From a virus, in the IMG/VR virus record IMGVR_UViG_3300045988_175607, positions 1 to 47,955 of that record: 47,955 nucleotides of DNA; one strand, written 5' to 3'. Under the pieces are notes generated by a model. That model made no database searches and had not been told where the DNA came from. It saw only the letters and a list, made by a program, of their open reading frames with translations. This document shows positions 27,546 to 30,500 of this stretch, piece by piece (the stretch's first letter is position 1; each line of letters opens with the position of its first letter). The translations under genes and the position numbers were made by a program.

Positions 27546-30500
27546 ATGGTGAGTTCATATTTTAATTGTCATAATCATACCTGGTACTCTAATATTCGCT
27601 TACTTTGACTGTATAAACAATCCCAAAAAGCTCATTGATAAAGCTATTGAATTAGGTCTTGAAGGTATAGCGATTACTGATCATGAGTGTTTAAGTGCGC
27701 ATATGGAAGTAAATCAATATGCAAAAAAGATTCGTGAAAAATATCCTAATTTTAAAATTGCATTAGGAAATGAGATATACTTAGTTGATGAAAGAAAATC
27801 TGGACAAAAATATTATCATTTTATATTGATTGCTAAAGATTTATGTGGTCATCAAGGTTTGCATGAGCTTAGTTCAGCAGCTTGGTATGGTATGTATAAT
27901 GATCGTAATATGGATAGAGTTCCTTTATTAAAAAGTGAACTTAAAGACATTATGCAAAAATATAAAGGTCATATAATTGCAACTACAGCTTGTATTGGTG
28001 GTGAATTATCGACTAAAGCTTTGGCTATGGTAAATGCCCAAAAGAAAGATGATATAGAAACCGCAACTCTTGCTTACCAAGATATATGTACTTTTATTCA
28101 ATATTGTAAAGATGTTTTTGGCGATGATTTTTATATTGAATGCGCTCCTTCTACACAGCAAGACCAAATAACAGTAAATCAAAAACTATTTAAGATTGCG
28201 CAAGCTTATCATATTCCTATGGTTGTAGCTACGGACTCACATTATCTAACTCGTGCCGATCGACCCATTCATAAAGCCTATCTTAATTCAAAAGATGGTG
28301 ATAGAGAGGTTGATTTATTTTATGAGTTTACCTACTTAATGGATGAAAAAGAGTGCCGAGAGCTACTAAATAAATCGTTTAATAATGATAAAATAATCGA
28401 CTGGATTTTTCAAAATACTTTAAAAATTAAAGATAAAATTCAAGATTATTCATTAGAAAAAACTCAAAGCATTCCAAAAGTAGAAGTAACATTTTATCCT
28501 CAAAAAAATCAATGTGAAGAGTATCCTATTTTACATCAACTCTTTATGAGTGAAAACCCGCAAGAAAGAGCCTGGGTAAATGAATGTATTGCGGCAATGC
28601 ATGAAAAGAACTTGACCGATAAGATTTATTATGAAAGACTTGAAACAGAAGCCAATGTAATTTTGACTATTGGAAACAAATTACACGATTGCCTTTTTGC
28701 ATATTTTAATACTTTTAAACATTATATTGATTTGTTTTGGGAGTGCGGGTCAATTGTTGGTCCCGGTCGAGGTAGTGCCACGGGCTTTTTATCGAATTAT
28801 TTACTTGGTATTACTCAGCTTGAGCCCGTAAGATGGGGCTTACAATATTGGCGGTTCCTGAACCTCGAGAGAGTCGAACTTCCGGATATCGACGTGGACT
28901 TGGCTCCCTCGCGCCGACCAGCTATTTTCGAAGCGATTCGTAAAGAGCGTGGAGAATATGGCTTAGTTCAAGTTGCGGCCTTTGGTACTGAAGGTACGAA
29001 GTCTGCAATCTTAACCGCATGTTTTGCAGAAAATACTAAAGTTAAAACTTTTACAGGAGAAAAGAATATCCAAGATATTACTAATCAAGATTATGTTTTA
29101 ACAACTAACGGTTGGGAAAAAGTTATTACTCCAACTGAATATATATGGAATGGTAATTTTGTAAAAATTAACGGAAATTATGGTTTTGAAGATACTGTTA
29201 TCGCTACAGATAATCATGAATTTTTAATACTACCTAAAACCAATGAACATAGACTAGATGGAGATATAAATTATCAAGTCATTAATTCTTTGGTTCCCGC
29301 TTATGCAGAATTATCTGATGGTAAAAAATCTAAATATCGTAATTATATTAGAAATATTTCTCCTATTTGGGTTAAAGGAAAAGATTTAAAAGAAAAAGAT
29401 TACTTATTAAATAAAATTGATGGCTGCATTAAAGACATTGATTTTATAAATTGGACAAAAAAAACTAAATCTAATAATTGTAATTTAATTAAAAATAAAA
29501 TTGCAATTAATAATAATTTTTGTGAATTATTAGGGATTTGGTTAGCTGAAGGTAGCTTGAACAGAAATATGTACTCTTTTACAATTTCTTCTCAAGAAGA
29601 AGAGTTAAAAGAGCGAATTATATATTTAGTAAATGATGTTTTTGGACTAACTAATCCCTATATTAGTTATAGAAAAAATAATTCAATCTTAATACAATAT
29701 ACTTCTGCTGACCTACGAGATTTTTTATACAATTTATTTGAAATTCATAATTTTTCTGAAATCAATCAATATAACAAATATATTCCCAAAAAATTATTAT
29801 ATATTCTTCCTCAAAAACAGTTACAAATTTTTAAAGGCTGGGTCATGGGAGATGGTTATTATCGAGAAAGGATTTCTCAAAAGTGGAGCGGCTCTAAAGA
29901 AGCAAAAGGAACAACGGTATCTCGTCAACTGTTTTTAGATATGAAACATATTTTGTATCGGAATTTTTTAAATCCTTCTGTTACAAAAGAGTGTCGAGAA
30001 GGAAAAGTAGATGTTTATAATATTTGCTTTAGCGGAAAAGTCGCTCAGAAAATAGGACAAATTAAATATAGTAATTATTCAACTGAGTTAAATATTGAGT
30101 GGGAAGATCGTTTAGGAAAGGATTTGCCCTGTGTTTATAATAATAATTTATACATGAGGTGTCAAATTACTGAGGTTCAAACAATTAAAAACCGACAAAA
30201 TAAAAAAGTCTATTGTCTTATGGTTCCTTCTCAAAATTTTTCTGTTTCAGGAGTAATCGTTCATAATTGTCGTGGCTATCGTACTGAAGATTTTCCTGAA
30301 GGTATTGATGTTGACACAGCCCAGTATATGAGTTCACTTATACCTCAGCATCGAGGATTTTTATGGCCTCTAAAAGATGTCATTTATGGCAATCCTGAAG
30401 AAGATAGAACTCCAGTAAAACCCTTCATTCATGAAGTAGAACAATACCCAGGTCTTTTAGATATTATGTTGAATATAGAAGGCGTAGTAAATAAAAGAAC

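Follow-up and report, generated by a model that had tools for sequence, protein, structure and literature searches.

A prfB-type CUU UGA C frameshift site near the start of a phage dnaE gene and its probable link to a homing endonuclease cassette

Background

The heptamer CUU UGA C, the programmed +1 frameshift site of the bacterial gene for release factor 2 (RF2), is generally regarded as a speciality of that gene, prfB. All +1 sites of the CUU-stop type in RECODE belong to prfB (PMC10885494), and Antonov et al. (2013) described the CTT_TGA_C motif for prfB only (PMC3711429). GeneTack overlooks shifts that lie less than 50 nucleotides (nt) from the start (PMC3711429). In our literature searches we found neither a phage polymerase with a CUU UGA C frameshift nor a homing endonuclease linked to a frameshift. 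Here we describe this heptamer in the dnaE gene, encoding a DNA polymerase III alpha subunit, of a gut phage, on a viral stretch of 47,955 nt (IMG/VR record IMGVR_UViG_3300045988_175607, positions 1 to 47,955; hereafter the window), and show that it is conserved and horizontally spread in this essential gene, which is unrelated to prfB.

In Escherichia coli prfB the heptamer follows a Shine-Dalgarno (SD)-like hexamer after a 3-nt spacer (AGGGGG TAT CTT TGA C, NC_000913.3). Shifting at such motifs is not strictly dependent on the SD: the Flavobacterium prfB motif gives about 7 % shifting with or without it (PMC10798248), and the E. coli motif with its SD inactivated still gives about 10 %, and more at low ribosome load (PMC6815119). 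Using a 70S system, Huang, Cho and Chang (2018, PMC6321510) further found that +1 shifting at CUUUGA is stimulated when a stable hairpin abuts the ribosomal E site.

A different kind of precedent is found in phage T4, where the homing endonuclease MobA accompanies the 50-nt translational bypass of the topoisomerase gene 60. To our knowledge, no other homing endonuclease cassette depends on recoding by the ribosome. The endonuclease and the bypass together make up one mobile element, from which MobA is often lost (bioRxiv 10.1101/2022.08.31.505936); that preprint, citing Bonocora et al. 2011, states that the gene 60 insert blocks self-nicking by MobA.

Results

In the window, frame 0 from the ATG at 27546 reads MVSSYFNCHNHTWYSNIRLL and ends at a TGA stop (27606-27608), while the +1 frame starting with GAC at 27607 reads DCINNPKKLIDKAIELGLEGIAITDHE... 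and stays open until 32760. Joining the two frames at CTT/GAC, which amounts to omitting one T, yields ...RLLDCIN..., as encoded by about 110 in-frame relatives, and keeps the product in the register of its in-frame homologues with no residue gained or lost at the junction. The leader contributes the first PHP metal-binding motif, the residues HNH of codons 8-10 counted from the ATG, and the Pfam PHP domain spans residues 8-199 of the joined protein, thus crossing the frame junction. After removal of an intein, the joined protein matches, in order, PHP (E-value 2.7e-23), DNA_pol3_alpha (1.8e-42), finger (1.4e-19) and HHH_6 (2.7e-17). This domain order is that of SPbeta YorL, and the spliced length of about 1320 amino acids (aa) is presumably also the same. 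YorL-type genes are the best matches among cultured phages (41-46 % identity, with the N-terminal 257-269 aa as query). They differ in that the cultured relatives among the matches listed are in-frame at the junction, and the window gene carries an intein.

From its upstream stop (~27550) to 27703 the +1 frame contains no ATG, GTG or TTG, so that the conserved +1 segment 27607-27702 is out of reach of separate initiation. The true start is probably GTG 27549, because ATG 27546 is replaced by ATA in five close relatives and the GTG position is ATG in a sixth sequence, L268 (relatives are denoted by locus handles). A preliminary description made from the letters alone had placed the start at ATG 27546, assigned the rest of a "1.7-kb polymerase" to the +1 frame from GAC, and equated the heptamer with the RF2 site. 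Its stop codon, PHP motif and +1 polymerase body are all borne out, and the heptamer is indeed identical to that of E. coli prfB with the same Leu-Asp decoding; its start codon gives way to the GTG, and the size was wrong, as the dnaE product has 1737 aa, of which 416 aa are the intein (29020-30267).

The likeness to prfB extends to the early position of the site (codon 21 here, codon 26 in E. coli) and to the arrangement of hexamer, 3-nt spacer and CUU, the window reading ATTCGC TTA CTT TGA C. The two systems differ in three respects. The hexamer is not SD-like here (ATTCGC, with AUCC and CUCC types in relatives); the product is a DNA polymerase, which leaves no autoregulatory loop; and the dnaE allele is polymorphic and horizontally mobile, whereas the prfB site is vertically conserved. 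By itself the heptamer CTTTGAC is unremarkable, with 6 occurrences in the window where 4.6 are expected; its significance rests only on its position at the junction and on its recurrence at the same codon in relatives.

That recurrence is extensive. Among 80 related loci obtained by a protein-guided scan of IMG/VR, five are frameshifted and most of the others are in-frame, with LLD encoded by varied codons. L001 (96 % aa identity) and L029, L030 and L054 (67 %) have the exact CTT TGA C at the corresponding codon. A degenerate DNA pattern across the shift site recovered 46 stretches from IMG/VR, of which 42 are genuine dnaE N-termini of very diverse sequence, together with 45 metagenome stretches and four contigs binned into metagenome-assembled genomes (MAGs) and labelled Lachnospiraceae, Erysipelotrichaceae, Clostridium and 'Bacteroidaceae'. 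Altogether, 56 distinct 160-nt sequences from 94 loci share the T insertion at this codon; the loci span less than 50 % to 99 % protein identity and derive from IMG/VR, JGI, ENA and GenBank MAG assemblies. Widening the pattern to any Leu codon and any inserted base added only three chance matches and no genuine variant, leaving CTT+T as the sole one-base insertion seen at this codon. A DNA similarity search of GenBank phages returned short matches only (72-77 % identity), and in protein searches no cultured relative exceeds 46 % identity, every match listed being in-frame, which leaves no isolate to serve as a model.

Both parts of the interrupted gene evolve as protein-coding sequence. Over 470 codons from GAC 27607, comparison of the window with L001, L283 and L270 gives a synonymous divergence (dS) of 0.63-0.70, a nonsynonymous divergence (dN) of ~0.02 and dN/dS of ~0.03-0.04; so low a ratio at dS ~0.65 implies that the frameshifted gene has long been functional. 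The 32 codons ahead of Met 27703 are conserved as protein. In frame 0, the motif H-x-H-[ST]-x-[YFWH]-S-N-[ILV]-R-L-L is kept across the 56 frameshifted sequences despite synonymous turnover that includes exchanges between TCN and AGY Ser codons, and clades made up solely of frameshifted alleles reach up to 35 % aa divergence. Judged from these alignments, the site is conserved and both frames are under selection.

Compared with the same three relatives, the window leader (27549-27605, 20 codons) shows only 1-2 synonymous differences, while downstream about 42 % of synonymous sites differ; in this small sample, the near-invariance hints at an additional constraint at the RNA level.

The frameshift is associated with a neighbouring gene. 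In many frameshifted relatives the C-terminal domain of an HNH endonuclease (...SLDHKIPKSKGGTNHIDNLQILT...KRDMT.EEW...; Pfam HNH 21.5 bits, cut-off 21.4) is encoded right up to the dnaE start, in several alleles so closely that the HNH stop codon and the dnaE ATG overlap. Such an upstream HNH gene is present at 49 of the 93 frameshifted loci used for this count (29 of 59 distinct) and at none of 158 in-frame loci (0 of 112 distinct; Fisher p ~1e-16). Alignment by blastn reveals a clean insertion of ~730 nt in L120 and L279 relative to L171 and L226, and in L113 and L260 relative to L140. Homology to the upstream helicase gene ends at -74 from the GAY codon in in-frame alleles and at about -800 in HNH-bearing frameshifted ones, and resumes at about -72.

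The difference between sister alleles is not limited to the endonuclease gene and the T. Downstream of the shift site sister pairs are 91-98 % identical; upstream of it the SD region is changed and the 60-70 nt leading up to the site are ~20-25 % diverged, mostly at synonymous positions. Every close pair compared differs in this whole 5′ module. In a tree built from the protein downstream of the site only (distance matrices with neighbor joining, NJ, or the unweighted pair group method, UPGMA), frameshifted alleles fall into ~28 separate clades with ~24 state changes, and several of these clades have in-frame sisters that are 92-99 % identical. Sisters of both kinds are found together in sample 3300045988. 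The module also outlives its endonuclease: L093 and L110 are precise HNH-minus versions of the HNH-bearing L113 and L260 and have kept the frameshift.

In several respects this arrangement resembles MobA and gene 60. A free-standing HNH gene lies beside an essential replication gene; the element carries a re-coded segment of its target that ends in a non-triplet insert requiring ribosomal recoding; the junctions are clean, as seen in near-identical genomes of which only some have the element; and the recoding insert often persists after the endonuclease has gone, with other nuclease families at the same site. The differences concern the recoding event, here a 1-nt +1 slip at a stop codon instead of a 50-nt hop; the target, here the 5′ end of dnaE and not a topoisomerase gene, with no split of the reading frame into two proteins; the hosts, the phages here being gut or rumen phages of Firmicutes; and protection from cleavage, which has been shown for MobA and would be expected by analogy here.

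The window itself has no gene between the helicase and dnaE, nor do L253 and L268. L001, L283 and L261 have in this gap a different nuclease-like open reading frame (ORF) with a weak DUF5889 match and TAG codons (L001 2131-3000). The C-terminus of that ORF reads ...LIEYDGxQH...IPLIRIPY..., and a C-terminal paralogue is found in the window at ~40080-40275 (within 39168-40283). From these comparisons the window appears to be an orphan derivative and not a complete cassette, and its clade would be a further case in which the insert is retained after loss of a nuclease.

Codons around the shift site are also distinctive when the 56 frameshifted sequences are set against 109 distinct in-frame ones. 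The base after UGA is C in 50 of 56, compared with GAC in 33 of 109 in-frame sequences. The E-site Leu codon is TTA in 51 (TTG in the other five), compared with 49 of 109. The preceding Arg codon is never AGR (all 56 are CGN, 53 of them CGC or CGT), compared with AGR in 28 of 109. As the preliminary description had remarked, no SD-like stimulator precedes CUU at the prfB distance of 3 nt: the hexamer in the window is ATTCGC, and other alleles have AUCCGC, CUCCGY or CUUCGU. The published rates of SD-less prfB shifting (~7-10 %, see above) make shifting without an SD plausible here as well.

The SD of dnaE itself is usually of the strong GGAGGG type in frameshifted alleles and weaker in the nearest in-frame relatives. 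We considered and rejected the idea that it stimulates shifting through ribosome collisions, as the prfB motif undergoes less +1 shifting when ribosome load is high (Smith et al. 2019, PMC6815119). A strong SD more likely compensates for a low yield of full-length product.

The hexamer that occupies the SD position of prfB covaries with a segment near the start codon. The tetramer at -9 to -6 from CUU complements a tetramer 2-3 nt past the GGG of the SD, with the 3′/5′ arm pairs ATTC/GAAT, ATCC/GGAT, CTCC/GGAG and CTTC/GAAG and, in longer form, TTACGC/GCGTAA and CTTCGT/ACGAAG, which fall into five pair classes. Complementarity holds in 48 of 56 frameshifted sequences (permuted mean 22.6 +/- 3.3) and in 26 of 32 representatives less than 80 % identical. 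A MAFFT alignment yields a covariation score of 0.235, compared with 0.131 +/- 0.017, with none of 500 shuffles as high; some 5′ arms are out of register in this alignment, which makes the covariation counts based on it conservative. In-frame alleles show weaker complementarity (58 of 109, against 45.9 +/- 4.4). The pairing comprises 4 bp in most alleles and 9-12 bp in some lineages, closing a loop of ~45-55 nt; in the window, GAGAAU and AUUCGC pair at ~5 of 6 positions.

Folding of 27525-27625 gave no stable structure (minimum free energy -10.8 kcal/mol, z = +1.8), so that the pairing rests on covariation, and a search of 27300-27900 against Rfam returned no known RNA family. RNAduplex comparisons of self with cross pairs are significant in the frameshifted and in the in-frame set, which means that part of the signal is not specific to frameshifting. 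An alternative partner for the AUCC-type hexamer, 16S rRNA, was rejected, the hexamer covarying with the mRNA's own 5′ segment. A stimulatory role for the arms is possible because an upstream duplex abutting the E site stimulates CUUUGA in vitro (PMC6321510). The 3′ arm here stops exactly 3 nt short of CUU, a placement comparable to that of the hairpin; unlike the hairpin, the pairing is long-range and short, has a partner overlapping the spacer between SD and start codon, and lacks energy support. A role in frameshifting is therefore speculative, and the covariation might also reflect masking of the ribosome-binding site or co-inheritance within a cassette that arose in few independent events.

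The window reads TAG as sense, as the preliminary description had proposed: treating TAG as a sense codon lifts coding coverage from 78 % to 91 %, and conserved domains contain in-frame TAG codons (five in a RuvC ORF; six in a GIY-YIG ORF, three of them within the domain). TGA is a normal stop, and neither a suppressor tRNA nor a release factor gene was seen in the window. Internal stops in the dnaE genes of relatives are all TAG. The frameshift is not confined to TAG-recoded loci: L082, L118, L273 and L103 are frameshifted and show no sign of recoding, and the likewise frameshifted L119 (IMGVR_UViG_3300026522_000022) and L116 have higher coverage only when TGA is read as sense. Many TAG-recoded relatives are in-frame at dnaE. 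A survey of 22 RF2 loci found two on contigs of in-frame relatives and none on frameshifted contigs; it relied on restrictive peptide patterns and is too thin for a test of correlation between RF2 and the frameshift.

Several further observations concern termination in these phages. ORFs of the window rich in TAG (up to six each) lie at 5374-6306, 8850-9725, 15020-15988 and 39168-41800 and on the minus strand at 42136-47904; they encode homing-endonuclease-like, RuvC and uncharacterised proteins, many on the opposite strand. The gyrA/B, ligA, dnaB, primase and dnaE genes have no TAG. Such an early/late split in TAG use is typical of TAG-recoded phages. In L119 and L116, ORFs neighbouring dnaE hold several in-frame TGA codons and coverage increases by 0.24 with TGA as sense; apart from the shift site, the first 805 codons of dnaE there are free of TGA. 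In a TGA-recoded phage, the UGA of the shift site would face a suppressor tRNA as well as RF2. The two RF2-bearing contigs with in-frame dnaE are L302/L309 (IMGVR_UViG_3300031555_003080) and L310 (IMGVR_UViG_3300032167_000002); the RF2 of L302/L309 has 360 aa with SPF and GGQ motifs and is a single ORF without the prfB frameshift.

Discussion

We consider it likely that the inserted T is the 3′ end of an HNH endonuclease cassette, that a prfB-type +1 slip keeps the polymerase expressible, and that the window carries an orphan of this cassette. In this scheme a free-standing HNH gene would have inserted just upstream of dnaE, bringing its own re-coded SD and first 20 codons and fixing one T between the Leu and Asp codons of the PHP motif ...RLL/DCIN..., so that CTT GAC becomes CTT TGA C. 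The T most likely destroys the HNH target within the conserved ...CTT GAC... and would thereby make carriers immune. The shifty heptamer would allow the polymerase still to be made. Full-length product would arise only when a ribosome with Leu-tRNA on CUU slips +1 to UUU and reads GAC; ribosomes released by RF2 would leave a peptide of 19-20 residues. In the window, where the endonuclease gene is absent, selection on dnaE would maintain the orphan frameshift. We favor this explanation because HNH linkage, re-coded segment, clean junctions and nuclease loss match the pattern of MobA and gene 60. It also fits the class termed 'savior indel plus compensatory frameshifting' by Atkins et al. (PMC5009743).

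A number of points weigh against this explanation. The window has no HNH gene between the helicase (end 27486) and dnaE and no HNH remnant was detected upstream, which makes a cassette origin for its clade an extrapolation, and about half of all frameshifted alleles are without HNH. Frameshift-type alleles or the intergenic junction could be the actual target of the HNH protein. Shared descent of a cassette, rather than repeated selection, may account for part of the codon bias around the site. Lacking a canonical SD-like stimulator, the site may shift with low efficiency, and frameshifting itself is deduced here from comparison of sequences. The in-frame sample comes from at least 120 loci listed, and the trees are crude.

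The other explanations account for less of the evidence. The preliminary description had allowed for a 1-nt insertion error, and a single-base difference within a TTT run of one window might have been an artefact of sequencing or assembly; the same insertion at 94 loci from independent assemblies refutes this, further sequence changes specific to the frameshifted alleles accompany the T, and we give an artefact practically no credence. It is very improbable that the gene is dead or yields only an N-terminally truncated polymerase from Met 27703. Standard gene callers would indeed report only the ORF 27703-32760, but dN/dS of ~0.03 applies from GAC 27607 onward, the 32 codons before Met 27703 are conserved, the frame-0 HxH motif persists through synonymous turnover, and the PHP profile crosses the junction; in addition, no second replicative polymerase was recognised among the window ORFs, most of which were inspected by eye only. 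A neutral, tolerated indel with 'corrective' frameshifting, in which the T arises repeatedly and persists with no function and no mobile element, has the advantage that many in-frame alleles are one step away (CTT at the Leu codon in 42 of 109, exact CTTGAC in 11 of 109) and agrees with the patchy distribution of frameshifted alleles and with the HNH-free window clade. We regard it as quite unlikely: it leaves unexplained the all-or-none HNH linkage, the clustered synonymous changes and new SD that come with the T in sister pairs, the biased E-site and Arg codons and the covarying upstream segment, and the site has been kept through dS ~0.65, unlike a transient deleterious variant.

The preliminary description had further suggested that the site could tie polymerase synthesis to the state of the release factors in a TAG-recoding phage. 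As the reason for the site's existence, such a sensor of RF2 or termination is unlikely, despite a window in which TAG is recoded and TGA is a normal stop, and despite the RF2 genes without frameshift found with in-frame dnaE only, as incompatibility with unregulated RF2 would predict. That last observation amounts to two contigs from a restrictive search, and the frameshift is strictly associated with HNH and not with code type, occurring in unrecoded and in TGA-recoded-looking loci and being absent from many TAG-recoded relatives; coupling on account of TAG recoding is thus unsupported. Polymerase output would nonetheless fall as RF2 activity rises, plausibly as a side-effect of the site and as a consequence, not a demonstrated purpose.

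A broader proposal goes beyond the cassette origin of the T, and we advance it tentatively, as one that may well prove wrong. These loci would represent a second natural family of cassettes combining a homing endonuclease with recoding, in which HNH invades the 5′ end of dnaE, a one-base insertion immunises, and the insertion is survivable only through the prfB heptamer. This would be the first widespread use of CUU UGA C outside prfB. The covarying long-range pairing, by bringing the SD region of dnaE itself beside the shift site, may replace the pairing of SD and anti-SD. Sensitivity of output to RF2 would be a by-product, RF2 being encoded by related phages or having its codon reassigned in them. 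A second, mechanistically different example would, if true, point to a general selfish strategy for residing in conserved coding sequence without an intron or intein.

The site matters in any case for the many uncultured gut and rumen phages that carry it, as gene callers will mis-annotate their polymerases as N-terminally truncated or as pseudogenes. The alleles also offer a natural series of SD-less prfB-type sites in varied contexts, from which to learn what stimulates +1 shifting. In recoded phages, with TAG or TGA reassigned or with a phage RF2, the site would make polymerase yield depend on termination factors.

Additional features of the locus

The features of the locus are collected in Table 1. 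The predicted promoter ahead of dnaE, whose motif TATGGTATAAT recurs in L029 and L002, implies a very short dnaE leader.

Table 1. Positions of features at and around the dnaE frameshift site of the window
Feature	Position	Strand	Basis
RecD-like superfamily-1 helicase gene, upstream neighbour	26359..27486	+	Pfam AAA_30, AAA_19, UvrD_C_2
Predicted sigma-70-like promoter, TTGATA-17-TATAAT, extended -10 TG	27488..27516	+	Consensus scan 11/12; function inferred
Strong Shine-Dalgarno GGAGGG for dnaE initiation	27537..27542	+	Direct reading
5′ arm GAGAAT, core GAAT 27544-27547	27542..27547	+	Complementary to 27594-27599
Probable start GTG	27549..27551	+	ATA GTG in L001, L253, L283, L261, L270; ATA ATG in L268
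Frame-0 leader, 19 sense codons then TGA	27549..27608	+	Translation
3′ arm hexamer ATTCGC, 3 nt before P-site codon	27594..27599	+	Place of prfB AGGGGG; covariation
E-site codon TTA	27600..27602	+	TTA common among frameshifted relatives
Shift heptamer CTT TGA C	27603..27609	+	Leu P-site codon can re-pair on TTT; UGA in A site; 3′ C
+1-frame body of DnaE/YorL-like polymerase III alpha, including stop	27607..32760	+	ORF list, Pfam, dN/dS
416-aa intein, LAGLIDADG-type endonuclease, CFAENT...VHN/C	29020..30267	+	Pfam Intein_splicing 35.7 bits, cut-off 35.8; LAGLIDADG_3 weak

The intein is absent from L001 and from L268, the latter otherwise 96-98 % identical to the window; it is thus polymorphic and probably still mobile. 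Inserts of mostly 1.1-1.3 kb interrupt dnaE in other relatives (L029/L034/L021, L039/L068, L044/L077/L053, L047/L060, L064 and L079) after ~aa 157, 437, 460, 610, 789 and 825-830. They could be introns or inteins, and dnaE is a hotspot of selfish elements.

A candidate break of another type lies five codons earlier in L019/L299 (IMGVR_UViG_3300029928_000001, ~2990-3000 of L019). There a 7-nt insertion creates TAT TCT TAA C, which would need a +1 shift at a stop codon followed by C, and ACTCAT at -9 to -4 complements ATGAGT at the start codon. A search for this type of break, TCT TAA C, found it solely on its own contig.

Downstream of dnaE, an nrdD-like ORF (33422-34600) looks truncated and is followed by small ORFs, among them a Cys-rich endonuclease-like one (35903-36607), and by nrdG (37150-37680). 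The window and L268 differ by an indel within 33422-37680, and the nrdD-nrdG region may hold another intron or homing-endonuclease insertion.

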